A program made the position numbers and the translations under genes. From a bacterium (GTDB lineage: Bacteria; Fidelibacterota; Marinisomatia; Marinisomatales; UBA1611): a stretch of 19,217 bases of DNA. Location: the NCBI GenBank assembly GCA_038127595.1, contig JAYPIC010000033.1, forward strand, positions 1 to 19,217. Direction: 5' to 3'. Below, piece by piece: positions 463-15,992 of this stretch (position 1 is its first letter; the number at the start of each line of letters is the position of its first letter). The notes under the pieces are model-generated. The model did not search any database and had not been told where the DNA came from. It was given only the letters and a program-made list of their open reading frames with translations.

Positions 463-571
463 CCTCCCTAACAATTAATCTTCCAATTTCGTTTAACACA
501 TGATACCATCAAACAATTTTATTAATATACGGTTGATCAATGACAGTATATTTATTGGACATAGAATCATA

Positions 572-862
572 ATGGAATATCTTCTTTTGGGCGTAATAGC
601 ACCGACCGTGCTGAATCTAATTCATCTAGGTATTGGGCTTTTTGTTACAAAAAATCAAGGAAATATCTATGGAGTAGGTTTTTCAGCCATAGGCTTTGTT
701 TCCAAAACCGCAGGCATGGTATTTTTAACTTGGCTTGGCGTTTCTTACATCGGATTGGACTTCAAAATATATGTTCCTCTATTAACATTTTTTTGGTTTA
801 TTACCCATATTTTGGAAGCATTCATAATTAATAGTGCAATGAAAAAAAATATCGATAAATGA
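572..862 (+). CDS. Hypothetical inner-membrane protein (~96 aa, about 3 TM helices)
   Basis: The ORF track starts at 500, but the hydrophobic body starts at the in-frame ATG at 572 (MEYLLLGVIAPTVLNLIHLGIGLFV...). Three hydrophobic segments and a basic tail; no recognisable motif. Confidence 0.7.
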   Translation: MEYLLLGVIAPTVLNLIHLGIGLFVTKNQGNIYGVGFSAIGFVSKTAGMVFLTWLGVSYIGLDFKIYVPLLTFFWFITHILEAFIINSAMKKNIDK

Positions 863-913: not shown

Positions 914-2128
914 TTGAAGTTAGATAGTGATTATTTTAGCAACATAATTTCTCGACTAGGCGCTAAAGATTTGTTGGAAAATTTTACTGATCACAAATTG
1001 GCAAACTACAAAAGTAAAAGAAATTTTGATTACGGCAGTTATGAGAAAAATTTTGTGAGTGCATTATCACCAGCTCTTTCAAGAAGAATCATTACTGAGC
1101 AAGAAATCATCAAGCATGTATCCAGTCAATTTTCATTTGGGCAAATTGAAAAATTTGTAGATGAAATATGTTGGCGGACATATTGGAAAGGTTGGCTTGA
1201 GCACAGGCCAGCGGTTTGGTATGACTATTTATCCCAGTTAGAGAGTTTTGAGGACGAAAAAATCAATAACCCACTTTATCTTAAGGCAATTAAGGGTAAT
1301 ACAGGGTTAGAATGTTTTGATTCTTGGGTAAAAGATCTACTGGAATTTGGGTATCTACACAACCACTCTAGAATGTGGTTTGCAAGCATTTGGATATTTT
1401 ACTTTAATTTACCGTGGCAACTTGGAGCGGAATTTTTCTATCAAAATTTAATCGATGCAGATCCTGCATCAAATACGCTGTCATGGAGATGGGTAGCAGG
1501 CCTTCAGACTCAAGGTAAAAAATACATAACCTATAAAGAAAATATTGATCGCTTTACTGGCGGTAGGTTCAGTTTTCCAGATAATTTTGTGCTTTCTGAT
1601 AGAATGACTGATAATTATGTTTACTATGAGCCTAATTATCAAGTTTTAGAAAGCAATACCACAAATTCAAAAAACAAAGGTTACATGGTAATTGAAGATG
1701 ATCTTTCATTTACAAATGTCATGAAAGATAGTCCAATTTTGATCCAATCTGAGTCTTATAACCCATTTGGTCAAAGTGAAAATGTAAAGTATTTTTCTGA
1801 TAGAGCATTAAAGAGTGCTAAAGAGTATTGTAAAAAAAATATCAGTAAAAATGTAGCAACTTTTAAATGGAGTAACGTAGAAGAAATAAACGATTGGGTT
1901 ATTACAAATAAGATAGATGAGGTCGAGATAATTTCGCCAACTGTAGGAAAGTTTGAAAAACTAATTCCTTCTACGTTTAAAAGGTTAGATGTCAAATCAT
2001 CTTATTTTTTTCATGACTGGGATAAGTTGTTTTGGAGACATGCTGATAAAGGTTTTTTCAAGTTGAAGAAAAATATAAAAACAATTGTATCTCCATTTTG
2101 GAATATGCCTTTATTTAACTCTGATTAA
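914..2128 (+). CDS. DNA photolyase/cryptochrome family FAD-binding protein, inverted-domain (NewPHL-like) class
   Basis: FAD-binding motifs sit in the N-terminal half: 'VSALSPALSRRIITE', 'KFVDEICWRTYWKGWLEHRP', 'GYLHNHSRMWFASIW', 'LPWQLGAEFF', 'DADPASNTLSWRWVAGLQT'. It is 404 aa with no N-terminal antenna domain, and the C-terminal region ends 'WD..FWRHADKGFFKLKK'. Confidence 0.9.
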   Translation: MKLDSDYFSNIISRLGAKDLLENFTDHKLANYKSKRNFDYGSYEKNFVSALSPALSRRIITEQEIIKHVSSQFSFGQIEKFVDEICWRTYWKGWLEHRPAVWYDYLSQLESFEDEKINNPLYLKAIKGNTGLECFDSWVKDLLEFGYLHNHSRMWFASIWIFYFNLPWQLGAEFFYQNLIDADPASNTLSWRWVAGLQTQGKKYITYKENIDRFTGGRFSFPDNFVLSDRMTDNYVYYEPNYQVLESNTTNSKNKGYMVIEDDLSFTNVMKDSPILIQSESYNPFGQSENVKYFSDRALKSAKEYCKKNISKNVATFKWSNVEEINDWVITNKIDEVEIISPTVGKFEKLIPSTFKRLDVKSSYFFHDWDKLFWRHADKGFFKLKKNIKTIVSPFWNMPLFNSD

Positions 2129-2129
2129 T

Positions 2130-2546
2130 ATGAAATTCCCAGTCATACCAGTATCATCTGGACTAATCATCCAAAATAATAAAGTACTTATTGGTTTGCG
2201 CTCTAGGAGCGATAATGGAGGTGGACTTTGGGAATTTCCTGGTGGCAAAATTGAAATTGATGAGTCTAGTGAAAATGCGGTTATTAGAGAGTTAAGTGAA
2301 GAGCTTGACATCATTGTCCGTAAACCAAAAAAAATAATGCAGTATTTACATCGCTTTAAAAATTTGATCTATGATATATCTTTTTTTGAAGTGATCTCAT
2401 TCAAAGGTTCCATAAAGAAAATAGTACATGATGAACTTGAATGGGTAGACCTTGATTCTATTAAAAATTATAATTTTATATCTGGTGATTTGTTGATCAT
2501 TGATAGACTCATTAATGAGCCAAGTTTAGTAAAAGGATTAGAATAA
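2130..2546 (+). CDS. mutT: MutT-like Nudix hydrolase ((d)NTP pyrophosphohydrolase)
   Basis: Nudix box 'WEFPGGKIEIDESSENAVIRELSEELDI' plus the MutT/NudG-type 'HDELEWV...F..GD'. The ATG at 2130 lies 1 nt after the photolyase stop and is preferred over the overlapping start at 2085. MutT versus NudG specificity cannot be resolved. Confidence 0.85.
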   Translation: MKFPVIPVSSGLIIQNNKVLIGLRSRSDNGGGLWEFPGGKIEIDESSENAVIRELSEELDIIVRKPKKIMQYLHRFKNLIYDISFFEVISFKGSIKKIVHDELEWVDLDSIKNYNFISGDLLIIDRLINEPSLVKGLE

Positions 2547-2561
2547 TGTGGAGAGTGCTCA

Positions 2562-2999
2562 ATGAAGTATAGACAGTCTGTGATTGTTAAAAATGTAACG
2601 CTTCAAAAAGCAAATGAAACGTTTAATGACATTAAGTTTTTAAAATATTTGATAGCCCTTCAGCCGGTAAGAATAATTAATTGGGATGGTACGTATGATG
2701 GCGCAGAGGCACATATGAAGTTTTGGTTTTTTGGATGGAAAGATTTTAAAGTTACTCATGGTGAAAATAGGAGTGAGAAAAACCTATTTTCTTTCAAAGA
2801 TATTGGTTCTGTTTTGCCTTTTGGGTTATCGAAGTGGGAGCATACCCACATTGTTTTAAAAAAAGAAAACAATGTAGAAATTATTGATGAATTAAATTTC
2901 AAAGGGCCAAATAGTCTGATCATGTTTTTTGTAGCGCCAGTTCTCATTTTCCCAATTTTTTTGCGTAGAGTACTTTACAGGACTTATAGTTGGGATTGA
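2562..2999 (+). CDS. SRPBCC (START/Bet v1-like) family protein
   Basis: 145 aa; the pattern 'FSFKDIG..LPFGLSKWEHTH.V......IIDELNF....P.F..R' matches SRPBCC proteins. GGAG RBS lies upstream. Confidence 0.7.
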   Translation: MKYRQSVIVKNVTLQKANETFNDIKFLKYLIALQPVRIINWDGTYDGAEAHMKFWFFGWKDFKVTHGENRSEKNLFSFKDIGSVLPFGLSKWEHTHIVLKKENNVEIIDELNFKGPNSLIMFFVAPVLIFPIFLRRVLYRTYSWD

Positions 3000-3163
3000 T
3001 GTCCAAACAAAATAAAAGATATCTACCATCTAAGATGTGCCCTATTTGTGATCGACCATTTATATGGAGAAAAAAATGGAGATTGAACTGGGATGAAGTA
3101 AAGTATTGTTCAAAAAAATGCTCAGGTAATAATAAAAAGAACGTTTTGAGCGTTTCATTGTAA
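2999..3163 (+). CDS. DUF2256 domain small Cys-rich protein (54 aa; not in ORF track)
   Basis: Manual translation: MSKQNKRYLPSKMCPICDRPFIWRKKWRLNWDEVKYCSKKCSGNNKKNVLSVSL*. It matches the DUF2256 signature LPxKxCxxCxRPFxWRKKWxxxWxEVKYCSxxC, and its start overlaps the upstream stop (TGATG). Confidence 0.92.
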   Translation: MSKQNKRYLPSKMCPICDRPFIWRKKWRLNWDEVKYCSKKCSGNNKKNVLSVSL

Positions 3164-3205
3164 TTTTATTTTGTTATCTTATCTTTTTTAATACTAAAAT
3201 TAAAT

Positions 3206-3679
3206 ATGAATAGAAGAGAGTTTATAAAAAACAGCTGTGGCATTGCATGTGCTTGTGTAGGTATATCTGCTATCAGTTTACTTCAAAGTTGTGAAGATAA
3301 TAAAGCTTATGAACAGAATACCAATGAGGGAGGGGGTACTCCTGATAGTGATAATCAAATAGTCATTAGCTTACAAGACTCTCCATATCAAAATTTAACT
3401 AATGTTGGTGGCACCGCTGTAATGAGTTCAAATTCAATCGATTCATTAGGACTGCTTTTGATACGATCTTCTGAAACGCAAATTAAAGCATTTTCTAGGA
3501 GGTGTACTCATTCTTCTTACCGAGTAAATGCATTCAACAGTCAAGGTTTAGCAGTTTGTAGTTCTGGTCATGGCGGTAGCTTTAACACGAATGGACAAGT
3601 TGCTGCTGGCCCTCCTAATGCAAATCTTGCTTCTTACAACACAACTTTAGAAAATGATACCTTAACTATTTTTGGTTAG
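3206..3679 (+). CDS. Tat-exported Rieske [2Fe-2S] lipoprotein
   Basis: Twin-arginine signal 'MNRREFIK', lipobox-like 'LLQSC', Rieske boxes 'AFSRRCTH' and 'CSSGHGGSF...G....GPP...L..Y'. Confidence 0.85.
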   Translation: MNRREFIKNSCGIACACVGISAISLLQSCEDNKAYEQNTNEGGGTPDSDNQIVISLQDSPYQNLTNVGGTAVMSSNSIDSLGLLLIRSSETQIKAFSRRCTHSSYRVNAFNSQGLAVCSSGHGGSFNTNGQVAAGPPNANLASYNTTLENDTLTIFG

Positions 3680-3691
3680 AAAGAGAATATT

Positions 3692-3886
3692 ATGCTAAAA
3701 AATATAAATTTATTTATAGTCTCATTGCTAGCGATAGAGTTTTTTTCATTATTGCTTGGATATGGCACACACTTTGAACATTACAAATATGCTATTATGC
3801 TTAGCATAGTGATTTTAAACTATCTTTTTATCAAGAGTCAGTCTAAAGTCAAAGTATTGAAACAGCCTAGTAACAAACAATTATAG
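3692..3886 (+). CDS. Small hypothetical membrane protein (64 aa, 2 TM)
   Basis: Fills the gap between the Rieske and DUF6370 genes in the same orientation, with two hydrophobic segments and a basic tail. Confidence 0.6.
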   Translation: MLKNINLFIVSLLAIEFFSLLLGYGTHFEHYKYAIMLSIVILNYLFIKSQSKVKVLKQPSNKQL

Positions 3887-3897
3887 GAGCGATTGTT

Positions 3898-4272
3898 ATG
3901 AATTTTAAGTATATAGTTTACATTGCATTATTCACATCATTCTTTTTAAATCAGTTAGATGCAGGTTGTGGCTCCTGTGCAGCTGACAGGAATAAGACTA
4001 AAAAGGCCTTCATTGAAAATATACCATCTAATGGTAAGATCGATGGTAAAACATTTGCCTCATGCGGAATGTGTAATTTTGATACTGGGGAAAGAAATTG
4101 TGGTTTATCTGTTAAGATAGGTAAAGATGTGATTAAGGTTGTAAATGTAGATATTGATGCTCATATCGATTCTCATGCCAAGGACGGGTTCTGTAATGTT
4201 GTTAGAATTGTAAAGGTTAAAGGTAAAGTCAAAAATAATAAACTTTACGCTGACTCTTTTTCAGTATTATAA
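3898..4272 (+). CDS. DUF6370-like secreted Cys/His-rich protein
   Basis: Signal peptide followed by 'ASCGMCNF....CGLSVKIG.....V....IDAHIDSHAKDGFCNVVR.VKVKG', the pattern recalled for DUF6370 proteins. AGGAG RBS at 3885-3889. Confidence 0.75.
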   Translation: MNFKYIVYIALFTSFFLNQLDAGCGSCAADRNKTKKAFIENIPSNGKIDGKTFASCGMCNFDTGERNCGLSVKIGKDVIKVVNVDIDAHIDSHAKDGFCNVVRIVKVKGKVKNNKLYADSFSVL

Positions 4273-4274
4273 TT

Positions 4275-5645
4275 TTAGCTACGAACCTTTTTAAAATAAT
4301 ATACGCTACCAGTCGCTGTAAGTCCGATTCCAAGTAAAGATGGAATTGGGGCTGTTATAAGAGTTAGTGTTAAGAAAGAAGTATACAAAACTAGTACTAT
4401 TATCATGCTAGTTGGGTAGAGGAATGCTTTATATGGCCTATCTTTATCAGGATATTTTTTTCTCAAAATATAAATAGAGCCGAAAGTTAGTATATTAAAA
4501 ATAGTACTCGTAGCAGAGAAAAAATCAATTACAGTTTCATACATATTATTTCCTGTATCTCCAGACTGAAAGTAGCTTGATAAAATTGCCCCAGTGAGAA
4601 GTACGGTAGCCCATACTCCTTGGCCAATTAGAGCATTATTTGGAGTGGCATAGGTTGGATGAAGCTTTTTGAAGCTGTCAAAAAAAAGTCCATCTCTTGC
4701 CATAGCGTGCCATGATCTGCCCTTACACAGAATTTGAGTACTTATATTGCCGAAAGCATTTATTGCTACTGCAATCGAAATTAAAATTCCTCCAGTAGCG
4801 CCCATGACAACTTCAACTGCTTTTGTGGCAACCCATTTATTTTGCTTTATAGTTTCAATGTCTAATTGATATATATAGCCAACATTCGCTCCGAGATATA
4901 AAACCATTATCCCAGATATTCCTAAAAATAAAGAAATAGGTAAGGTTTTTCCTGGGTTTTTAACCTCTTCGGCCATGTATGTTGCACCTTCCCATCCACT
5001 AAAGGCAAAAAAGGAATACCTTAATGCTGCTCCTATAGCTAATACAGTATGCCATCCAAAATCCTCAGGCCAGAATGGGTCTGTGAAGTGACTTGTATCA
5101 CCAGTAGAAAACCCTGTTAAAGTGATACCTATAATTGCACCGACAGCAATTACTTTAGTAGCACCAAAAATAACTTGAAATTTCCCACTTAAACTCACTC
5201 CAAACAGATTTATTGCCGTTAAAAGCCAAATGGTAAATAATGATAGAATGAAAGTGGGAAAGATTCCAAAGGGCTCACCAGAAATAATTTGAAATATTGC
5301 ATTAATGAATTCTGTAAAAACAAGCGAGACAGCTACTATTGAAGCAGTCTCAGAAACAAAAAACATTGCCCACCCTCTTAAAAAGGCAATATATGGTCCA
5401 TAAGCCTCTTTTAAAAAAACATATGGACCACCTGATTTTGGGATCATTGCAGTTAGCTCTGCATAGACTACAGCACCAAAAATAGTGATTATACCACCAA
5501 GTACCCAAACTAGCCCAAAAAGAGACGTACAACCCACTAACGCCATTATTGGGGCTGGTGTCCGAAAAATTCCTGAACCAATAATCCTGCTAATTACAAT
5601 TGCGGTTGATTCTTTGATTCCTAAATTTTTTTTGTAATCTGTCAA
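4275..5645 (-). CDS. APC-superfamily amino acid permease (LAT/SteT-like)
   Basis: TM1 'IIGSGIF', 'YAEL...PKSGGPYVFL..AYG', TM6 'FAFSGWE...AEEVKNP', 'AMARDGLF', 'RPYK'; about 12 TM segments. The TTG at 5645, 10 nt after the spmB stop, is preferred over the 5693 start that overlaps spmB. Confidence 0.92.
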   Translation of the reverse strand: MTDYKKNLGIKESTAIVISRIIGSGIFRTPAPIMALVGCTSLFGLVWVLGGIITIFGAVVYAELTAMIPKSGGPYVFLKEAYGPYIAFLRGWAMFFVSETASIVAVSLVFTEFINAIFQIISGEPFGIFPTFILSLFTIWLLTAINLFGVSLSGKFQVIFGATKVIAVGAIIGITLTGFSTGDTSHFTDPFWPEDFGWHTVLAIGAALRYSFFAFSGWEGATYMAEEVKNPGKTLPISLFLGISGIMVLYLGANVGYIYQLDIETIKQNKWVATKAVEVVMGATGGILISIAVAINAFGNISTQILCKGRSWHAMARDGLFFDSFKKLHPTYATPNNALIGQGVWATVLLTGAILSSYFQSGDTGNNMYETVIDFFSATSTIFNILTFGSIYILRKKYPDKDRPYKAFLYPTSMIIVLVLYTSFLTLTLITAPIPSLLGIGLTATGSVYYFKKVRS

Positions 5646-5655
5646 AATGAATTGT

Positions 5656-6204
5656 TTATATGAATATGATTTTACAAATGTATACTGCTGCAATTACTCC
5701 AACGGCATCAGCAATCAAACCTGCTATGAGAGCATGTCTTGATTTTCGAATACCAACAGATCCAAAATAGACAGCTAATACATAAAAGGTGGTTTCAGTA
5801 GATCCAAACATTGTTGCTCCTATTTTCGTAAACAATGAATCTGTACCATATTCATTTACAAGGTCTGTGAACAGGCCCAATGATCCACTTCCTGATAATG
5901 GTCTCATTATAGCAAGAGGGACATTTTCTGGAGGGAAGCCGATAGCATTTAAAAAAGGAGATATTAGGGAAATGAATAATTCCATTGCGCCAGAGGCTCT
6001 AAACATTCCTATGGCAACAAGAATTGCTATGAGATATGGCATTATTCGAACAGCAATATCAAAGCCATCTTTTGCTCCATCGACAAATGATTCATAAACT
6101 TTTATTTTTTTAAAGACTAGGCCATAAAATGGTATGCCAACTAGCAAAAATGGAATGATATATTTTGAGATCTGATTTGTTAATAAGATAAAGCTATCGA
6201 TCAT
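5656..6204 (-). CDS. spmB: Spore maturation protein B family membrane protein (gate domain)
   Basis: 'VYESFVDGAKDGF...I.PYL..ILVAIGMFRASGA', 'PLAIMRPLSGSGS', 'GSTETTFYVLAVYFGSVGIRKSRHA' are characteristic of SpmB. Confidence 0.93.
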   Translation of the reverse strand: MIDSFILLTNQISKYIIPFLLVGIPFYGLVFKKIKVYESFVDGAKDGFDIAVRIMPYLIAILVAIGMFRASGAMELFISLISPFLNAIGFPPENVPLAIMRPLSGSGSLGLFTDLVNEYGTDSLFTKIGATMFGSTETTFYVLAVYFGSVGIRKSRHALIAGLIADAVGVIAAVYICKIIFI

Positions 6205-6800
6205 GCTAATTCCTTGCTGTTATCCAATTTAAATCGATCCATTTTTGACAACATTTTAACTGATACTATAGCTGCTACCGTGGATAGAGATGTTGCAAAT
6301 ATTGTTGTTATGAATATTTGACTAGAAGATGCACCCATTAGACCCACTACTGTAGCAGGCAAAATGATTTGAACACTTGATGTATTGATTGCTAAAAAGG
6401 TACACATAGCGTCTGTTGCTGTATCTTTTTGTTTGTTAAGACTCTGAAGCTGCTTCATTGCTTTAAGACCTAAAGGTGTTGCAGCATTTCCTAGCCCTAG
6501 CATATTTGCTGCCATATTAAGAACTATGGAGCCTATTGCAGGATGATCACTTGGGACATCTGGAAATAGTTTTATTGTTATTGGGCGTATTAGTCTTGCA
6601 ATAATATTAATAAGGCCGGATTCCTCAGCAATTTTCATTATACCTAGCCAAAGCGCCATAATACCAATTAAGCCAATAGCTATTTCTACGGAGGTTTTTG
6701 ACATAGAAATTGCAGCTTCAGTTACTTGATCTATTCTTCCTGTAATTGTCCCGACAACTACAGATATTAAAATGAGTCCAAACCAGATATAATTAAGCAT
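6201..6800 (-). CDS. spmA: Spore maturation protein A family membrane protein (nucleoside recognition gate domain)
   Basis: 'MLNYIW', 'LWLGIMKIAEESGL', 'LFPDVPSDHPA', 'ANMLGLGNAATPLGLKAM', 'FLAINTSSVQ'. ATGA overlap with spmB. Confidence 0.93.
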   Translation of the reverse strand: MLNYIWFGLILISVVVGTITGRIDQVTEAAISMSKTSVEIAIGLIGIMALWLGIMKIAEESGLINIIARLIRPITIKLFPDVPSDHPAIGSIVLNMAANMLGLGNAATPLGLKAMKQLQSLNKQKDTATDAMCTFLAINTSSVQIILPATVVGLMGASSSQIFITTIFATSLSTVAAIVSVKMLSKMDRFKLDNSKELA

Positions 6801-6808
6801 AAATAAAT

Positions 6809-7741
6809 CTATAGTTGAACCGCGTTATCAATTAAAGTAACTGGCATTTCTTTGTTTTTTGTGTCAATTTCAGTATTAATAGATAGAGGTAATGTTGATT
6901 GGAATTTTCCATGACCGCAAGGAAAATTTGATAAAATAGGTACGTTAAGGTCTCCACAGATATCTAAAATAATTTGATCAATATTCCTTTCAAATTTTAC
7001 TTCTTGGTCTTTCATATCTTTTAATTCACCAAAAATTAATCCTTTGATGTTATCAAACATGCCAGCTTCTCTCATATGAACAAGCATCCTTTCAAAGGAA
7101 TATAAATACTCATCGATGTCTTCCAAAAATAAAATGGTTCCATCTGTATTTAAACTGTCATCAGTCCCTAGTCTATTAACTAGTAGACACATATTGCCGC
7201 CCCATAAAGGTCCAGAAGCAACACCATGTTTTAGTATTTTGGTTTCTAGCCCTTCTGGGCTATAGATTTTTATAAATTTTTCTCCAGCAAGCACTCTCTG
7301 CATTAGGCTGTAGTTATACTCAACCCATGAATCTCTGTAGGTTGTAAGCATCGGTCCATGGAATGTGACTATGGAGGTTTTTTGAGTAATTGAAGTCAGC
7401 AAAGCTGTGATATCACTGTACCCAATAAAAATTTTAGGGTTTTCTTTTATTAAATTATAATCTAATAGTGGTAAAACTCTATTGGCACCATAACCTCCTC
7501 GAGCACAAAAAATAGCATCGATATCTGAGCTTCCAAACATTTCATTAATGTCATCTGCTCTTTGCTCAGGAAGTCCGGCAAAAGGTCCCCATTTAAGATC
7601 ATTACTTTTCCCAAATTTCAGTTTATATCCTAGGTTTGTAAAATATTTAGATGTTAAGGATAATATTTCTCCATCTAACCAATAGGAAGGGCTAACGATT
7701 CCAATAGTAGAGTTTTTATGAAGTGCTTTTGGTTTAATCAT
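6809..7741 (-). CDS. ldcA: LD-carboxypeptidase (peptidase S66, LdcA/MccF family), cytoplasmic
   Basis: 'IGIVSPS', 'ARGGYGANR', catalytic Ser in 'FIGYSDIT', 'FHGPM', 'GGNM', Glu region 'LFLEDIDE', His in 'FPCGHG'. No signal peptide. Confidence 0.92.
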   Translation of the reverse strand: MIKPKALHKNSTIGIVSPSYWLDGEILSLTSKYFTNLGYKLKFGKSNDLKWGPFAGLPEQRADDINEMFGSSDIDAIFCARGGYGANRVLPLLDYNLIKENPKIFIGYSDITALLTSITQKTSIVTFHGPMLTTYRDSWVEYNYSLMQRVLAGEKFIKIYSPEGLETKILKHGVASGPLWGGNMCLLVNRLGTDDSLNTDGTILFLEDIDEYLYSFERMLVHMREAGMFDNIKGLIFGELKDMKDQEVKFERNIDQIILDICGDLNVPILSNFPCGHGKFQSTLPLSINTEIDTKNKEMPVTLIDNAVQL

Positions 7742-9152
7742 ATATAATACTTTTTACAATTTGATCATGAACGCGGGCATATCTAGATGAGTAGTCAGTA
7801 TAGCCATTCATTAGAATGGAAAATGCCACATCACCATACTTTTTTGATTTTATGTAGCCAGCAAGGTTTCGAACTCCTGATAATCCACCAGTTTTTGCCC
7901 TGACTAGGTCACCCTCATCTACTAAACGCTTTTCTAGAGTACTGTTCTCCCAGCCTCCTCCAGGAAGAGTTGAAATAAAATCATCTTTATATTCACTATT
8001 ATACATCCATTTAAGCAATGAATTTAACTGAGCTGCGCTGGTCAAATTATATCTAGAAACGCCAGATCCACCAGCTAGTCTCATATTAGATGTATCGATC
8101 AGGACTTCTTTCGCTAGAAAAGATTTTATGCTATCTAAGCCAACTTTCCATGTACCAGGTAATGTATCTAATGCTCCGATAGATTTAACAAAAAGCTCTG
8201 CGGTCAGGTTATCACTCTCATTCATTAAGTTTGTAGCTGAATGTATTAAAGGTTTTGATAAATGATTGCTTATTTTTTTATAGCTTTTATTTAATGTCTT
8301 CTTTTTTGAAAAGGTTTTTACTTTTGCTCCATACTTTTCTAGAGACTCTTTAAATACTACCCCAGTGAAAGTAGAAGGGTCGTAAATATTTCTGTAAAGC
8401 GTATCTACATCAGAAGTATCAATGATTTCCCCATATGCATTAAAGTTATTTTTGTTCAAAACCCAATCTCTGTCAATTTTTAATTTTTTTTGTACTGAAT
8501 CCTGAACAGTAATTGATTCATTTTTAAATTTAATAAAAGATGTTTTAGGATAGTAATCAATGGATGCAGACTTTCCTGCAGGGCCTGGTTTAATGTAAAA
8601 ATCAATACAATTATCATTTACTGAAAGAGCACTTATTGGAGCTGCATACCACCATGGACCTTCATCCCACATCCAGCCCTCTCCATAGTTTAAACTATCA
8701 AGAAAGGTATCATCGATAAAAAGGGTATCAATATTTTTATATTTTTTTGATACCTCTAAAGCTAGAGAATCTAATTCTTTGACAGATAAGTCTGGGTCTC
8801 CACCTCCCTTTAGAATTAGGTTCTTTGTATCAGAAAAAACATCAGTTTCAAATTGATGATCTTTTCCTAAAAAATATAATGCTGCAGCACTAGTGTAGAG
8901 TTTATTTGTACTAGCTGGCATTAATAGTTTTTGGCTATTATAGTCATAAATTACTTTATTGTCTTTTAGAGATATGACTTGAATGCTCATATTTAAATCG
9001 ATTTCAGAATTTTCAATGATTTTATTAATCTTATTTCTAAGGTTTATTGAACCTTCCATTTTGTAGAAAGATTTTGGAGGCGCACAGCTCGAAATTATTG
9101 CGGTAAAAAAAAGTAATATAAAATTGGGGCTCTGTTTAAACATATCAATCAT
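7734..9152 (-). CDS. dacB: D-alanyl-D-alanine carboxypeptidase/endopeptidase PBP4 (peptidase S13), probable lipoprotein
   Basis: SxxK 'PASTNK', 'GGGDPDL', 'GWMWDE', SxN 'ESDNLTAE', KTG 'RAKTG', 'LAGY', 'FSILMN'. Lipobox-like 'IISSC'. Confidence 0.93.
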   Translation of the reverse strand: MIDMFKQSPNFILLFFTAIISSCAPPKSFYKMEGSINLRNKINKIIENSEIDLNMSIQVISLKDNKVIYDYNSQKLLMPASTNKLYTSAAALYFLGKDHQFETDVFSDTKNLILKGGGDPDLSVKELDSLALEVSKKYKNIDTLFIDDTFLDSLNYGEGWMWDEGPWWYAAPISALSVNDNCIDFYIKPGPAGKSASIDYYPKTSFIKFKNESITVQDSVQKKLKIDRDWVLNKNNFNAYGEIIDTSDVDTLYRNIYDPSTFTGVVFKESLEKYGAKVKTFSKKKTLNKSYKKISNHLSKPLIHSATNLMNESDNLTAELFVKSIGALDTLPGTWKVGLDSIKSFLAKEVLIDTSNMRLAGGSGVSRYNLTSAAQLNSLLKWMYNSEYKDDFISTLPGGGWENSTLEKRLVDEGDLVRAKTGGLSGVRNLAGYIKSKKYGDVAFSILMNGYTDYSSRYARVHDQIVKSIIYD

Positions 9153-9805
9153 TTTAATGATAAAATAAATGTGTCAAGTAGCATATGTCCAAAATTGAAT
9201 GACTCATTAGCTCCCTCAAGTCCAAGGTTATGCTCCTCAACAAATGCTTCCGTTGCCTCTATATGTGGTTGGAATCCCCAAATTGGTTTTTCTATTGATT
9301 CAATCCCTTCAATATCAACCATTTCGCTCGAAGCAATTACATTAAATTTTGGTGGAGGTGTTGTAATTCCATCCTGATGAGAATAGAGCAATAATCCAGA
9401 TTTAGAACTCCCCCATAGAGAACTTTTTTTAATGTTTACTTTACGATTTCCTCTTTCAATCTTTTCATTCCAAAGCGGCTCTACTATGCCACCAAAAATT
9501 TTACCAATTAGTTGATGGCCGTAGCACAACCCCATAATTGGAATATTAATTTCTGTAGCTTGTAAAATCACCTTTTCTATTTCATCTTGCCACTTATTTT
9601 TATCGTTTACTGATGTAGCGCTGCCAAGGATAATGATACCTAATGTGTTTTCATTGAATTCGTTATGCATACTTTTTGTACCGTAAAGAGCTGGTAGGTG
9701 GTATGTAACACTGAAAGGGGCTACTTTAACGATACGGTTAAAAGACTCTAAAGATGGCGTAACCACCGCTGGGTCAATAACCATAAGGCTTTCATTATTT
9801 TTCAT
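9149..9805 (-). CDS. Stand-alone class I glutamine amidotransferase / C26-like gamma-glutamyl hydrolase
   Basis: Nucleophile elbow 'PIMGLCYGHQ', 'SHQDG' and His-x-Glu 'GFQPHIE'. No synthase domain. ATGA overlap with dacB. Confidence 0.88.
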   Translation of the reverse strand: MKNNESLMVIDPAVVTPSLESFNRIVKVAPFSVTYHLPALYGTKSMHNEFNENTLGIIILGSATSVNDKNKWQDEIEKVILQATEINIPIMGLCYGHQLIGKIFGGIVEPLWNEKIERGNRKVNIKKSSLWGSSKSGLLLYSHQDGITTPPPKFNVIASSEMVDIEGIESIEKPIWGFQPHIEATEAFVEEHNLGLEGANESFNFGHMLLDTFILSLK

Positions 9806-9982
9806 TACTTGTAATTATTTATATATCTTCTGAGTTAAAAAGTAGCGTATTTTTGATATTGGTACGAAGTTTTATTTATTTTAAAAATTAACCTGTTTAA
9901 GATTTAACACATTTTAATGACTAAAAAAAATATATCCACCTCTAACTTAGTTTTTAAAAATATTTTCTCACAAAATTTGATT

Positions 9983-12900
9983 ATGCTTTCATTAATCAAA
10001 TTATCAATGGTCCTTTTAGTGAGCTTTTTTGTCAGTTGTGACAGGTCTGGTTTTACTAATAAAAATAAAGTAAAACTATCTGATGAGATGCAAGATATGT
10101 TAAATGCTTTATTAGATGGAGATTATATTGTAGAAGCAGAGCCATTTTTTCAAGCAGAAGATAATGATGAACTCATTGGTGAGTACATTCATGTTGATTC
10201 AGTTTCATCCGGTATTAATTTTAAAAATAGTTGGAATCCAGATAAGAAATATAAAGGTCAGCTAGGTAATTCATTTATTGCCGCAGGCGTTGCAGTAGGA
10301 GATTACAATAATGATGGTTTACAGGATTTATTTTTAGCAAGGCAGCAGGACGGAGGAAAACTTTTTCAGAATATTGGTGGGTTTAAATTCAAAGATGTTA
10401 CAAAAAAAGTTGGTATTAACTCAGCTCCTTTTTGGAGTACAGGTGTTTCTTTTATTGATATTAATAACGATGGCTGGTTAGATATTTATGTTTGCGCGTT
10501 CGATAGCCCTAACAAACTGTATATAAACAATCGTGGCAAGTTCAATGAGTCGGCTGGAGAATTTGGATTAGATTTTAGCGGTGCAAGCGTATCGATGTCA
10601 TTTGCTGACATCGATTTAGATGGAGATCTAGATGCATACCTACTTACCAATAGACTTCAGGATACTGATTCAACGCTAAATGTTAAAACTCTTAAAAACA
10701 AACCTGATCCATACGTTATAGATCCAAAATATGAAGAGGTGGGGTACTTTATTAAAAGGCCGGGTAAAGTCCCGTTGCTTGTAAATGCAGGACAGTTTGA
10801 TCACCTATATCTCAATGATAATGGTAAGTTTATTAACGTAACCAAAGAATCTGGTATAGGTAAAAATCCTTATTATGGATTATCGGCAACTTGGTGGGAT
10901 TATAATGATGATGGACTACCTGATCTTTATGTTGCGAATGATTATATGGGACCAGATCATTTATTTCAGAATTTGGGGCAAGATAAAGATGGAATTACTC
11001 AATTTAAAGATGTTGTTTCAAGTGCTCTTCCTTACACCCCATGGTTTTCAATGGGTTCTGATTATAGCGATATTAACAATGATGGACTAATGGATTTGAT
11101 GGCTTCAGATATGGCTGGCAGTAATCATTACAGAGATAAAGTATCAATGGGTTCGATGAGTGGACCAAATAGTGAAGCATGGTTTTTAAATTTTCCAAAT
11201 CCTCCTCAGTATATGAGGAACACTTTATTTTTGAATACTGGTACTGAAAGATTTATGGAAATAGCATATTTAGCTGGACTAGCAGCGACAGACTGGACTT
11301 GGACTGTGAAATTTGGAGATCTAGATAATGATGGTTTTGAGGATGTTTACTTTACAAATGGTATGTCCAGGGATTTTGTAAACGGAGATTTAAAGGACAG
11401 GTTCAGGGTTATAACAAATAATGATGAAAAAGCCTTGAAAGAGTCAGACCTATGGGAAAATGAAAAACCATATAAGCTTAGTAATATGGTATTTAAAAAC
11501 TTAGGCAATTATAAATTTAAGGACACCAGTATAAAATGGAACCTAGATTATTTTGGGGTAAGTACAGGGTCAGCTTTAGGCGATTTGGATAATGACGGTG
11601 ATCTTGACATTGTCATGAATGGCTTTGATGAAGAAATTCGTATTTATCGTAATGAACTTAAATCTGGCAATTCAGTACGGGTAATTCTGGAGGGTTCAGA
11701 GAGTAATTTTCAAGGCCTTGGCTGTAAGGTTATTGCTATTTATGATGGGGGAAAAAAGCTGACAAGATATTTATCTAGCTCTCGTGGTTTTATGAGCTCT
11801 AGCGAATCAGTATTGCACTTTGGAATAGCAAACGAAGAGAAAATAGATAGTTTATTTATTTACTGGCCTTCAGGTGCTAAACAATTTATTTCTAACCTGC
11901 CTGCTAATTTAACATACAGAATTAAAGAAAAATCCTCATCTGAAAAAAGAGAGGCTAAAGTCGATCCAATGTTTGTAAAGGATAGAGGTAGCCTATCAAA
12001 AATTGTTCATCAGGAAAAAATATATGATGATTTTAAAAGGGAAAACCTATTACCAAATAAATTATCGCAACTTGGTTCTGGTGTTTCATGGGGAGATGTT
12101 GATGGAGATGGAGATGATGATATTTTTGTTGGTGGGTCAAAGGGTTTTCCTTCAAAGCTTTACATCAATAAAGGCAAACAGAAATTTGAAAATAAATTTC
12201 AACCTGTTTTTATAAATGATTCAAAATATGAAGACATGGGCTCAGTGTTTTTTGATCCTGATCGAGATGGCGATCTTGACCTGTTCGTAGTTAGCGGCGG
12301 GGTAGAGTGCGAACCTGGTGATCCAATTTTGCAAGATAGACTATATATAAATGATGGGAATGGTAATTTTGGTAGGGCAGCTGAAGGCCTAATACCTAAA
12401 CTAAATGAGAGTGGTAGCGTGGTATCAGTCGCGGATATTAATCAGGATGGTAGAGACGATCTTTTCATTGGCGGAAGGACAGTCCCGGGTAATTACCCTT
12501 CGAGCCCACGCTCCTTCATTTTAATTAATTCTGGAGCCAGGTTTATTAATGAAACTCAAAAGGTTGCGCCATCATTAGCTAATGCGGGAATGGTTACCTC
12601 AGCTATTTTTTCTGATGTAAATAATGATGATTGGCCCGATCTTCTCGTTACTTATGAGTGGGGACCAGTTCGTTTTTATCTTAATGATAAAGGGATATTA
12701 TCTGATAAGACATCTATGGTTGGCCTTGATTCTAAAATAGGATGGTTTAGTAGTATAAGCCCTGGTGATATTGATAACGATGGAGATATCGATTTCATTG
12801 TTGGAAATACAGGATATAATACGAAGTATAAGGCCTCATATTTAAATCCCGAGATCTTATATTATGGAGATTTTGAGGGGAATGGTAAGAAAAACATTGT

Positions 12901-13726
12901 CGAGGCAAAATTTGAAGACAATGTATGCTTTCCTCGTAGAGGGCTAGGCTGTTCTAGTGATGCTATGCCAATTATTAAAGAACGATTTCCGACTTATCAC
13001 CAGTTTGCTATTTCATCAGTCGATCAGATTTATTCTCAAGAGTTATTAGATAAAGCTCAAAAATTTGAAGTGAATGAGCTTGCTTCAGCTATCATAGAAA
13101 ATAGAACAACTAAAGAGGGTAAAATTCAATTTTCCTTTCAGCCTCTTCCAAGGATAGTACAATCTAGTCCAATATTTGGTACCGCATTATGCGATGTTAA
13201 TGGAGACGGTAATTTAGATCTATATGTTGTCCAAAATTTTTCCGGGCCTCAAAGAGAAACGGGATACATGCGAGGTGGGGTGAGTCATCTTCTGCTCGGA
13301 GATGGGATGGGTAATTTTACAGCAATTTCTCCAAATGAAAGTGGGTTAGTGGTCAGTGCTGATGCCAAAAGTTTAACTATGAATGATGTCGATCAAGATG
13401 GTAAAGTTGATTTTCTAGTAGGCGTTAACAATGGAAAATTTCTTTCATTTATCAATGATATTGATTTTAATGGTAGTGCTATAAGATTATCAGATCTTCC
13501 CAAGGGCAAACATTTTATAGGAGCAAAGATCTGGCTTCATTTTAAAAACGGAAATATTCAAATGCATCAGCTTAGTGGTAGTTCAGGGTATTTATCACAA
13601 TCTGGACCTGTGGTCTATATTGGTGATAAATCTGATATCAAAAAAATGATTATAAAATGGCCTAATGGTTCAAAAGATGAAATAAATTTCTCTAATTCAC
13701 CTGAGTTATTTAGTTCAACATTCTAA
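9983..13726 (+). CDS. CRTAC1/ASPIC-UnbV family FG-GAP (VCBS) repeat lipoprotein
   Basis: About 14-15 DxNxDG/DxDxDG Ca-binding repeats, an ASPIC/UnbV domain ('GLGCKV....RGFMSSSE..LHFG......I.WPSG') and a second shorter copy at the C-terminus. The ATG at 9983 gives a lipoprotein signal 'MLSLIKLSMVLLVSFFVSC'; the ORF track start is 9917. Confidence 0.88.
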   Translation: MLSLIKLSMVLLVSFFVSCDRSGFTNKNKVKLSDEMQDMLNALLDGDYIVEAEPFFQAEDNDELIGEYIHVDSVSSGINFKNSWNPDKKYKGQLGNSFIAAGVAVGDYNNDGLQDLFLARQQDGGKLFQNIGGFKFKDVTKKVGINSAPFWSTGVSFIDINNDGWLDIYVCAFDSPNKLYINNRGKFNESAGEFGLDFSGASVSMSFADIDLDGDLDAYLLTNRLQDTDSTLNVKTLKNKPDPYVIDPKYEEVGYFIKRPGKVPLLVNAGQFDHLYLNDNGKFINVTKESGIGKNPYYGLSATWWDYNDDGLPDLYVANDYMGPDHLFQNLGQDKDGITQFKDVVSSALPYTPWFSMGSDYSDINNDGLMDLMASDMAGSNHYRDKVSMGSMSGPNSEAWFLNFPNPPQYMRNTLFLNTGTERFMEIAYLAGLAATDWTWTVKFGDLDNDGFEDVYFTNGMSRDFVNGDLKDRFRVITNNDEKALKESDLWENEKPYKLSNMVFKNLGNYKFKDTSIKWNLDYFGVSTGSALGDLDNDGDLDIVMNGFDEEIRIYRNELKSGNSVRVILEGSESNFQGLGCKVIAIYDGGKKLTRYLSSSRGFMSSSESVLHFGIANEEKIDSLFIYWPSGAKQFISNLPANLTYRIKEKSSSEKREAKVDPMFVKDRGSLSKIVHQEKIYDDFKRENLLPNKLSQLGSGVSWGDVDGDGDDDIFVGGSKGFPSKLYINKGKQKFENKFQPVFINDSKYEDMGSVFFDPDRDGDLDLFVVSGGVECEPGDPILQDRLYINDGNGNFGRAAEGLIPKLNESGSVVSVADINQDGRDDLFIGGRTVPGNYPSSPRSFILINSGARFINETQKVAPSLANAGMVTSAIFSDVNNDDWPDLLVTYEWGPVRFYLNDKGILSDKTSMVGLDSKIGWFSSISPGDIDNDGDIDFIVGNTGYNTKYKASYLNPEILYYGDFEGNGKKNIVEAKFEDNVCFPRRGLGCSSDAMPIIKERFPTYHQFAISSVDQIYSQELLDKAQKFEVNELASAIIENRTTKEGKIQFSFQPLPRIVQSSPIFGTALCDVNGDGNLDLYVVQNFSGPQRETGYMRGGVSHLLLGDGMGNFTAISPNESGLVVSADAKSLTMNDVDQDGKVDFLVGVNNGKFLSFINDIDFNGSAIRLSDLPKGKHFIGAKIWLHFKNGNIQMHQLSGSSGYLSQSGPVVYIGDKSDIKKMIIKWPNGSKDEINFSNSPELFSSTF

Positions 13727-13782
13727 AGTTCTGGTCATATAAAATAGGAAATGATATGTTAAGTAATATAACTTTATAGTCA

Positions 13783-15192
13783 ATGAAGTTTCATTTAAGC
13801 CTTACCACATTTCTTATCCTATTATTTTCTTGCTCAGGAATTGAAAAAAGTAATATCACTTTTGCGGGCAAGATAAAGAATAATACTGAGCCCATTGTCA
13901 AGGTATCAAACTACAAAAGCAGCTTGAGTGAGGAAATTGAGATTGATTCTTCTGGGAATTTTAATGGTTCCTTTTTGATAGATAAGGAAGGCTATTATTA
14001 CTTTCAAATAGGCAGGTCATACACAACAGTATTTTTTTCTCCTAATAATAAAGTATTCGTAGATATAGATGCAGATAGCTTTTTTCAGAAAATTTCTTAT
14101 TCAGGGACATTACAAAAAGAAAATAATTATAATGTCTCAAAGTCAAAACTTCGATCAAAGCTTGTTGGGGATGCTAAGGAATATTTTGTTGTTCCCCTAG
14201 ATGAATTCTTGTCAAAAATAGATAATACCAAAAGACAACTTTTGCAATTATTGGAGAGTAATACTCAACTAAATGAAAAGACTAAAGCAATTGAAAGAAA
14301 AATAATTCATTATGAATATCTTCAGGCTTACAATAATTACCAAAAGTTTTACAGCTATCATAAAAAAGTAAACGCAGATCTTCCTGCTGATTATTATGAA
14401 CCTGTAATTAATATGGATCTTAACGATGATGAAATGTTCAGGTATTCTAGAGCGTACAGGAATTTAGTGGTTGAAAATTTTAGATTGTCCTCCAAAAAAG
14501 CATTAGCAGAAAATCAACAAATTGATATTATTGATTTTGTTGAAGGGCAAATTAAAAAGATGAACAGTCAAGATATAAAAGAGCAATTTACAAGTATGTT
14601 GATCAGGCAAATGAAACAGTCTAATTCAAATATAGACAGAGATTATATCAGAATAGATTCACTTTTAACAACAAAGAGAATGAAAGATAAACTTTTTCTC
14701 AGGTATAGGTCTGCAAAAGAAAATACATCGGGAGCTGTGGCAGTCGATTTTAACTATGAAAATTTTGAAGGAGGCAGAACTTCACTTAAAGATTTGTCTG
14801 GCAAGATTGTGTATATCGATGTTTGGGCTACATGGTGCGGCCCATGTATTAAAGAAATGCCAGCTCTTAAAGAACTTGTAGACTATTACAAAGGTAAAGA
14901 TATCGAATTTGTTAGTGTCTCCATAGATAGTGAAAAAGATTACCAAAAATGGAGAAAAATGGTACCAGAGAAAAACGTTGGTGGGATACAGCTTTATGAT
15001 CCTGAGGGTCTAAATTCATCCTTTATGAAATCTTTTAGCGTTAGTTTAATACCTAGATTTATGATGATTGATAGACAAGGAAAGATTATTACTGCACATG
15101 CGCCGAGACCATCTTCAGAAAATATAAAAGCATTTATTGATAGCCATTTAAATGACAATAAACCAAAAGTGGTTAAGTTTAAAACTTCATAA
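13783..15192 (+). CDS. TlpA/ResA-like thioredoxin-fold disulfide reductase lipoprotein
   Basis: Lipobox 'LLFSC', long N-terminal domain, C-terminal 'GKIVYIDVWATWCGPC..EMP', 'FVSVSID' and cis-Pro 'IPRFMMIDRQGKI'. Confidence 0.9.
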   Translation: MKFHLSLTTFLILLFSCSGIEKSNITFAGKIKNNTEPIVKVSNYKSSLSEEIEIDSSGNFNGSFLIDKEGYYYFQIGRSYTTVFFSPNNKVFVDIDADSFFQKISYSGTLQKENNYNVSKSKLRSKLVGDAKEYFVVPLDEFLSKIDNTKRQLLQLLESNTQLNEKTKAIERKIIHYEYLQAYNNYQKFYSYHKKVNADLPADYYEPVINMDLNDDEMFRYSRAYRNLVVENFRLSSKKALAENQQIDIIDFVEGQIKKMNSQDIKEQFTSMLIRQMKQSNSNIDRDYIRIDSLLTTKRMKDKLFLRYRSAKENTSGAVAVDFNYENFEGGRTSLKDLSGKIVYIDVWATWCGPCIKEMPALKELVDYYKGKDIEFVSVSIDSEKDYQKWRKMVPEKNVGGIQLYDPEGLNSSFMKSFSVSLIPRFMMIDRQGKIITAHAPRPSSENIKAFIDSHLNDNKPKVVKFKTS

Positions 15193-15195
15193 TGT

Positions 15196-15201
15196 AGGAG
15201 G
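15196..15201 (+). promoter_or_regulatory. Shine-Dalgarno site
   Basis: AGGAGG 5 nt upstream of the ATG at 15207. Confidence 0.7.
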
Positions 15202-15206
15202 GAGAT

Positions 15207-15992
15207 ATGATCTACCAATGTAAAAAAGTAATACTATTCAGTTTTTTTATTATGGCATTTTGCTTTGCAAATTCTGACTCTATTTCAGATGAAGCCTGTT
15301 CTTTGAACGCACAAAGCACTCAGGCCTTAATGCTCACTCCACCAACTATTGTTATAGACCATGTTGGCCTTAACACCGTCGATACTCTTCCCGATTATAT
15401 TCCTCCTTATACAGAAGTTCTTGTTGATGTTCTTGTGAACGGAGGTGTAGACGAGGACGATATTGAACCTGGTGGTGTTGTTTTAAATTGGCAGGAAAAT
15501 TCTTTGAGCGCTCCAGTTTACATGCGTGCAATGCCCAGACTGTATAATCTTTTGTATCAAAATTATCATTATATAAAGCGCATAGATCCCTATGGTAATG
15601 GTAATAAAATTTATTGGTGGGTTACTGCCTTAAACACTAGTGGAGAACAATCTTCTACTGAAATTGATTCTTTTGTCATAGGAACTTTATCAATTGATGA
15701 TAGTATTTTGCCAGAGAGGATAAGTCTTAAAGGCAATTTTCCTAACCCTTTCAATCCATCCACTCAAATTTATTTTCATGTGCTAGAAAGATCTCAAATT
15801 GATCTAAAAATATTTTCCCTCAACGGAGATTTAATAAAATCGTATCCTGCGAAATATTTTGATAGTGGAACAAATTTTATTGAATGGAATGGATTGAATG
15901 ATAAGTACAATTCCGTACCATCAGGAGTGTATGTTTATAAAATCAAAAGCACGAACCAAATTATGTTTGGGAAAATGACCCTATTAAAGTAG
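15207..15992 (+). CDS. Secreted protein with FlgD-Ig / T9SS type A sorting-like C-terminal domain
   Basis: Sec signal, ~140-aa domain of unknown function, then 'LKGNFPNPFNPSTQIYF...IFSLNG...EWNG.......PSGVYVY...KMTLLK'. Confidence 0.85.
   Translation: MIYQCKKVILFSFFIMAFCFANSDSISDEACSLNAQSTQALMLTPPTIVIDHVGLNTVDTLPDYIPPYTEVLVDVLVNGGVDEDDIEPGGVVLNWQENSLSAPVYMRAMPRLYNLLYQNYHYIKRIDPYGNGNKIYWWVTALNTSGEQSSTEIDSFVIGTLSIDDSILPERISLKGNFPNPFNPSTQIYFHVLERSQIDLKIFSLNGDLIKSYPAKYFDSGTNFIEWNGLNDKYNSVPSGVYVYKIKSTNQIMFGKMTLLK

Follow-up and report, generated by a model that had tools for sequence, protein, structure and literature searches.

What does a marine bacterium do with an operon that joins wall peptidases to a pair of membrane proteins whose homologues are named spore maturation proteins? 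The window analysed here is the whole of contig JAYPIC010000033.1 (19,217 nt), from a 2.0 Mb Marinimicrobia/Fidelibacterota genome that is 95.8% complete (G000 below; other G numbers are genomes of relatives, L numbers spmAB-type loci, and C numbers contigs of G000). Six genes follow one another on its minus strand, from position 9805 down to 4275:

9149..9805, minus strand: GATase, 218 aa, PF00117
7734..9152, minus strand: S13 peptidase (PBP4), 472 aa, PF02113, and TIGR00666 above cut-off
6809..7741, minus strand: S66 peptidase, 310 aa, PF02016 and PF17676
6201..6800, minus strand: SpmA, 199 aa, PF07670
5656..6204, minus strand: SpmB, 182 aa, PF07670
4275..5645, minus strand: APC permease, 456 aa, TTG start, PF13520

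We consider it fairly probable that the six genes form the core, for trimming and import, of a system that scavenges peptidoglycan stem peptides, in a Marinimicrobia bacterium that makes every wall precursor except meso-diaminopimelate (mDAP).

The operon and its conservation

The genes are tightly packed. ATGA overlaps link GATase to S13 (9149-9152) and spmA to spmB (6201-6204), S13 and S66 overlap by 8 nt (7734-7741), and the two remaining gaps measure 8 nt (S66/spmA, 6801-6808) and 10 nt (spmB/APC, 5646-5655). There is no ATG near the start of the APC gene; a TTG at 5645 is in register with the start of its orthologues. A preliminary description of this DNA had reported six co-oriented genes with these junctions, and its coordinates, overlaps, gaps and family annotations were all reproduced. 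Opposite-strand genes lie on both flanks, an ASPIC/FG-GAP gene from 9917 and a DUF6370 gene ending at 4272. Contigs of four RNA libraries (3 studies) cover the operon genes and bridge every junction, but they reveal neither strand nor a single transcript, and they cover the flanks too; we infer co-transcription of the six genes. A scan for promoters and terminators did no better than chance, with 35 promoter-like sites against 27.2 ± 6.2 in shuffles.

Conservation was followed in 61 genomes covering the genus, family and order. Of these, 34 have spmA, G000 included, which leaves 33 spmA-bearing relatives. S13, S66 and spmA share one locus in 27 of the 33 (several loci end at contig ends), and the same locus holds APC in 19, GATase in 18 and all six genes in 14, some loci being cut by contig ends. 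This co-location confirms that the six-gene cluster is real, beyond chance. Variable members of the locus are an additional S66 that bears an export signal (6 relatives), SH3-NlpC/P60 (5), NamZ (5), LysA (4), a separate M15 D-Ala-D-Ala dipeptidase gene (3, besides five fusions to SpmB described below) and an MpaA over cut-off (G032).

The wider neighbourhood was counted in the best 80 of 575 genome loci, with groups assigned from record labels and synteny. S66 adjoins spmAB in 21/26 Marinimicrobia-like, 7/10 gammaproteobacterial, 3/5 firmicute and 1/1 Chloroflexi loci, so that the linkage extends beyond close relatives, as had been proposed. It is found in none of the 14 Legionellaceae loci, where an AmiA-like amidase adjoins spmAB instead (13/14), nor in the cyanobacterial (0/6), verrucomicrobial (0/6) or acidobacterial (0/2) ones. 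The linkage across the Fibrobacteres-Chlorobi-Bacteroidetes (FCB) group that a survey had been expected to reveal did not appear either, with 0/10 in KSB1, Cytophagia-labelled and other loci. In the SpmA tree, one supported set unites the copies from Marinimicrobia, gammaproteobacteria and Chloroflexi with S66-less cyanobacterial ones; the firmicute copies lie apart. The tree forces at least two S66-spmAB associations. We conclude that the link is real, but neither family-wide nor FCB-wide. Recurrent genes around spmAB are S66, M15, NlpC/P60, MpaA, Ala-Glu epimerase-like, LysA and amidases.

Several loci deserve mention in their own right. Four cyanobacterial spmAB pairs (L095, L098, L110, L115) are nested in the clade that also holds the Marinimicrobia copies, with no S66 nearby. 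A firmicute operon (L126:425-9337) runs pepT-like, murA, murE, lysA-like, spmA, spmB, S66 and M20, that is, wall synthesis and peptide salvage in one run. L084, from a record labelled Winogradskyella, has Marinimicrobia-like synteny and 80% SpmA identity, and is possibly misbinned or mislabelled. Directly upstream of the operon, 13 relatives (L038:738-4040 and 12 others) often have a protein of ~390 aa that matches nothing in Pfam and an M23 peptidase of ~700 aa that carries a secretion-tail domain; neither type was found in G000. A sodium:solute symporter fused to a beta-lactamase-fold domain stands beside the operon in G025 and G011 (L041:1648-4272), and a recurrent neighbour of these loci is a protein of ~775 aa whose matches, NagB-like and PIG-L-like, are weak (L045:8379-10709, and G000:C39:4157-6478).

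The apparent lack of a DAP pathway

The likely reason for the operon could not be seen from the window: no diaminopimelate (DAP) synthesis genes were found in the host genome. At 95.8% completeness, G000 gave no dapA-family gene, dapB, dapF or ddh, and no LysX over cut-off. It does have MurA, MurI, Alr, Ddl, the dcw cluster and a MurE scoring best as a DAP ligase. Its LysA passes the cut-off and is encoded in one operon with GH18 and NamZ. The pattern holds across the 61 genomes: dapB is over cut-off in none and dapF in 2, DHDPS-family matches occur in 12 (none in the host genus), and murI and murE are present in 54 and 56. The DNPR motif, which we take to mark the mDAP link, was present in 55/55 MurE read. 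A DAP decarboxylase and a DAP-type MurE in lineages devoid of a DAP pathway point to an outside source of mDAP. The lineage thus seems unable to make DAP, and mDAP is most likely scavenged from the wall peptides of other bacteria. LysA also goes with spmA (30/34 spmA+ versus 8/27 spmA- genomes; 21/22 versus 3/13 among near-complete ones), in counts where kin are not independent and lysA is often within 30 kb of spmAB. We did not find the order-wide absence of DAP genes, or this importer, in the literature searched.

One small genome is puzzling as to its supply of mDAP and D-Glu. G047 (1.1 Mb, 99% complete, 4 contigs) has a DNPR MurE and no match to dapB, lysA, murI, spmA, AmpG-like or YejA-like genes.

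SpmA and SpmB, candidate halves of a transporter

SpmA and SpmB are adjacent Gate-domain (PF07670) membrane proteins, 55-60% identical to firmicute SpmA/SpmB-family proteins. Their mechanism is described as unknown in excerpts of a 2022 survey of sporulation genes (bioRxiv 10.1101/2022.02.25.481979) and of PMC3533761, and SpmAB is not among the wall-fragment importers named in the literature we found. No sequence relative of either protein exists among solved structures. The fold was approached with a model of a natural SpmA-SpmB fusion, 59% and 60% identical to the SpmA and SpmB of the operon. Elevator-type transporters make up the first 13 VIA hits of this model and also lead its Foldseek list: it matches the DASS/INDY, ArsB, NhaC/MleN, TRAP-M, AbgT and CNT folds, with their scaffold plus transport-domain arrangement, at an rmsd of 4.6-6.9 Å and 6-15% identity, values that do not discriminate the family within the fold. 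For an internal inverted repeat at the sequence level, comparison of the shallow SpmA and SpmB profiles with each other gave a probability of 5.4% (E 0.007, 61 columns). From the model, SpmA would be the N-terminal and SpmB the C-terminal half of one elevator-type secondary transporter, differing from known ones by its split into two genes. In 5 of the 33 relatives SpmB and an M15 D-Ala-D-Ala dipeptidase form a single fusion protein, which Pfam bears out for three of the five. The earlier suggestion that SpmAB is an importer is thus strengthened as far as the transporter-like fold goes; a wall-peptide substrate is still a candidate.

In E. coli, the yjiH-yjiG-iadA genes likewise combine a pair of Gate-domain membrane proteins with an isopeptide dipeptidase encoded downstream. 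YjiG is weakly like SpmB (25% over 84 aa, E 3e-8), but YjiH has no pairwise likeness to SpmA; the function of YjiH-YjiG is also described as unknown (PMC13311989, in excerpt).

The APC permease

The second candidate importer has as nearest solved relatives y+LAT1/2, xCT and one bacterial LAT-like APC (E 1.7e-47 to y+LAT1). It carries LAT-type TM1/TM6 motifs and is below cut-off for TIGR00911. Six residues, R20 (TM1), E99 (TM3), R209 (TM6), Q304 and K308 (TM8), and D374, are invariant in 16/16 orthologues; all six are replaced in the other APC of G000, and y+LAT1 has other residues at the positions of R20, R209 and K308. These helices line the LAT pocket, where such mixed charges would suit mDAP or gamma-D-Glu-mDAP. 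The permease is proposed as a candidate importer of either compound, and as a candidate dedicated importer in the case of mDAP. Its orthologue is found in 21/34 spmA+ and 0/27 spmA- genomes.

The three enzymes

S13 has all the tested features of PBP4 (E. coli DacB type): export signal, motifs and family score (TIGR00666, 247.6 versus a cut-off of 107.8). The SxxK (81-84), SxN (313-315) and KTG (420-422) motifs and the N-terminal Cys were present in 28/28 aligned rows, and the lipobox-type Cys23 predicts a lipoprotein. S66, on the other hand, has neither signal peptide nor hydrophobic segment. These predictions agree with the earlier placement of PBP4 outside and of S66 in the cytoplasm. Ser109, the LEDxxE stretch (206-211) and His277 of S66 are conserved, giving the Ser-Glu-His triad along with both Pfam domains. 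A loop is used to separate MccF from LdcA-type S66 enzymes; the S66 of the operon has ~24 fewer residues than MccF in the stretch that joins the two aligned blocks, whereas it runs colinear with E. coli LdcA 5z01. MccF-like and LdcA structures give similar scores, and S66 is below the NCBIfam cut-off for muramoyltetrapeptide carboxypeptidase (NF008424, 146.2 versus 378). We regard it as a predicted cytoplasmic LD-carboxypeptidase of the LdcA/YkfA-like type.

The GATase (PF00117, E 6.8e-16) also has no signal peptide and no hydrophobic segment. It is a stand-alone domain with a Cys94/His181/Glu183 triad conserved in 19/19 aligned rows, features shared with class I GATase-like gamma-glutamyl hydrolases (PuuD/C26, GGP1). 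It reached no NCBIfam subfamily cut-off, the best matches being PRK09065 and GMP synthase subunit A; G000 encodes a full-length guaA on another contig, C31. The gene occurs in 24/61 genomes, only one of them outside the family, and adjoins S13 and NlpC/P60 even without spmAB in G016 and G019. Other glutamyl-amide hydrolases fill its slot in other lineages (L102, L107, L120, L121), which supports a link to gamma-glutamyl chemistry, and we consider it a candidate gamma-glutamyl or amide hydrolase. Its earlier assignment to gamma-glutamyl cleavage, read as that of the gamma-D-Glu-mDAP peptidase, was not supported: it is mostly confined to one family, and since it coexists with NlpC/P60 or MpaA, a role as main tripeptide peptidase is unlikely. 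Better guesses at a substrate are gamma-D-Glu-mDAP, which chlamydial YkfC does not cleave (PMC9928106, in excerpt), or amidated stems.

Other recycling genes of the host

No AmpG, Mpl or MpaA-like match was found in the 95.8% complete G000, so that the AmpG importer, already noted as lacking from the operon, was not found in the genome either. The predicted anticorrelation of spmA and ampG was not seen, AmpG-like matches, all below cut-off, being present in 13/34 spmA+ and 10/27 spmA- genomes. Other contigs of G000 hold amidases, NamZ, SH3-NlpC/P60 (C6), DppA-like and M15 peptidases, an exported lipoprotein S66, an enolase-family racemase (C26), GGT, an M20 peptidase and two SBP_bac_5 genes (C66, C95). 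The racemase neighbours a DUF1611 gene (C26:5973-8371), the best matches of the two being DgcN/DgcA D-glutamate pathway models, both below cut-off. A second wall-peptide operon (C45:6912-11514) comprises an M55 D-aminopeptidase, a small hydrolase, an AmiA-like amidase, the lipoprotein S66 and a beta-lactamase-fold protein.

The proposed pipeline of release, import, trimming and cleavage is thus upheld insofar as wall-peptide enzymes recur around spmAB; the role it gave to the GATase found no support, and it is not self-contained, as PBP4 by itself cannot release peptides from the glycan, and the amidases, SH3-NlpC/P60 and second S66 are encoded elsewhere.

The rest of the window showed no link to the operon that we could see in 9917-18439 (plus strand), where the FG-GAP/ASPIC protein (1269 aa), a TlpA-like redoxin, a secretion-tail protein and a TonB-dependent receptor are encoded. 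Positions 914-4272 (plus strand) encode a photolyase FAD-binding protein, a NUDIX hydrolase, a 145-aa protein, a Rieske protein with a twin-arginine-like start, and DUF6370, in an order kept within the genus. A hydrophobic 120-aa protein at 500-862 (plus strand) has no Pfam or NCBIfam match.

Discussion

In the scheme we favour, wall stem peptides of other bacteria would enter through SpmAB and/or the APC permease, the cytoplasmic S66 would trim the imported tetrapeptide, and the mDAP obtained would feed wall synthesis (MurE) and lysine (LysA). Some observations weigh against it: the operon does not suffice by itself; another import route is offered by a YejA-like binding protein of G000, which in relatives is accompanied by permease genes and which also occurs in many spmA-less genomes; and 13 near-complete relatives without spmA, by the query used, have no dapB either.

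An unlikely alternative, though the least unlikely of the rivals, has SpmAB importing D-alanine or D-Ala-D-Ala, with the APC permease or a Yej-like ABC system carrying mDAP peptides. D-alanine is the common product of the carboxypeptidases around SpmAB, B. subtilis spmAB lie after the DD-carboxypeptidase gene dacB (PMC8745062, in excerpt), alanine-racemase-like neighbours occur in L130, L102, L107 and L109, and the structural relatives are mostly small-solute carriers. Besides the five SpmB-M15 fusions, 3 of the 33 relatives have a separate M15, with a hydrophobic N-terminus, immediately downstream, and basic residues at SpmB 32-35 and 153-156 would place the C-terminus outside by the positive-inside rule. 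However, the most constant neighbour is the signal-less S66, which needs a cytoplasmic tetrapeptide, the LysA, epimerase-like, M20 and amidase neighbours point to mDAP peptides, and G000 has its own Alr and Ddl.

It is doubtful that the cell uses the locus to feed on the C and N of wall peptides or to recycle its own wall, with mDAP incidental and lanthionine or lysine in the wall, a reading that is in part compatible with scavenging. The DppA-like M55, the DUF1611 and racemase pair, GGT and M20 would fit it, as would the absence of dapB from spmA-less relatives and a cysteine-synthase-like gene on C63 that might encode a lanthionine synthase, a role that occurs in its family. Yet LysA, over cut-off in 37/61 genomes without a DAP pathway, needs outside mDAP, DNPR is invariant in MurE, and self-recycling alone gives a growing cell no net mDAP. 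Very improbable is a loose clustering of envelope genes with unrelated substrates for SpmAB, GATase and APC: no peptidoglycan genes adjoin spmAB in Halomonas, Prevotella, KSB1, cyanobacterial and most verrucomicrobial loci, nor in G055 and G057, two Marinimicrobia, and the GATase loci of G016 and G019 do without spmAB, but translational coupling, the restriction of the APC orthologue to spmA+ genomes, the SpmB-M15 fusions and an S66 link that recurs at two separate places in the SpmA tree all speak against it.

How does scavenging by this operon compare with known systems? The murein-peptide catabolic cluster of B. subtilis, dppA-E/ykfABCD, combines S66, an Ala-Glu epimerase, YkfC and an ABC peptide importer. 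There too a cytoplasmic S66 is linked to an importer, and G000 has a DppA-like M55, an enolase-family racemase and SH3-NlpC/P60; with no Mpl in G000, imported peptides would go to amino acids as they do there. Unlike it, the operon has SpmAB and a LAT-type APC as importers, with no ABC importer in the cluster, it includes the S13 lipoprotein and the GATase while racemase and NlpC/P60 lie elsewhere, and it belongs to a diderm in which no DAP pathway was detected. The operon appears to work like the dpp/ykf cluster, but is not a member of it, because it holds S66 and neither epimerase, YkfC nor ABC importer. B. subtilis DacB is an S11 carboxypeptidase. In dacB-spmA-spmB (PMC8745062, in excerpt) the pair similarly follows a DD-carboxypeptidase gene; here S13 replaces S11, S66, GATase and APC are added, no spore context is evident, although no search for sporulation genes was made in G000, and the likeness is via firmicute family proteins rather than those of B. 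subtilis. As in E. coli recycling by AmpG/LdcA/Mpl and Opp/MppA, import of wall fragments would precede S66 trimming, in the absence of AmpG, Mpl and MpaA-like matches from G000; the YejA-like protein recalls Agrobacterium YejBEF-YepA (PMC9790009, in excerpt). Within the phylum, the cultured Fidelibacter multiformis IA91 cannot make DAP and lives on muropeptides (PMC11652737, in excerpt). The reliance on wall fragments of other bacteria and the lack of DAP synthesis are alike; according to that excerpt, the losses of IA91 extend over wall synthesis at large (MurNAc, D-Ala, D-Glu, DAP, Lys), whereas in G000 only the DAP branch was not found.

More tentatively, and with less than even confidence, we propose that SpmA/SpmB are an unrecognised family of split elevator-type importers of stem peptides, apart from AmpG, Opp/MppA and Yej/YepA; that an abundant ocean order is mDAP-auxotrophic and builds wall and lysine from the walls of others via this operon; and that the spore-dehydration phenotype of B. 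subtilis reflects a failure to clear cortex-maturation peptides.

The operon supplies a predicted fold, candidate substrates and a growth-selection test for SpmA/SpmB, whose biochemical job the 2022 survey calls unknown; a dapD mpl strain given tripeptide has served for such a test before (PMC9928106, in excerpt). A further suggestion is that one amino acid of the wall has to come from other bacteria throughout a widespread marine lineage, which would be a more limited need than that of Fidelibacter, a muropeptide auxotroph. If true, this dependence would make the lineage a consumer of peptidoglycan in seawater.

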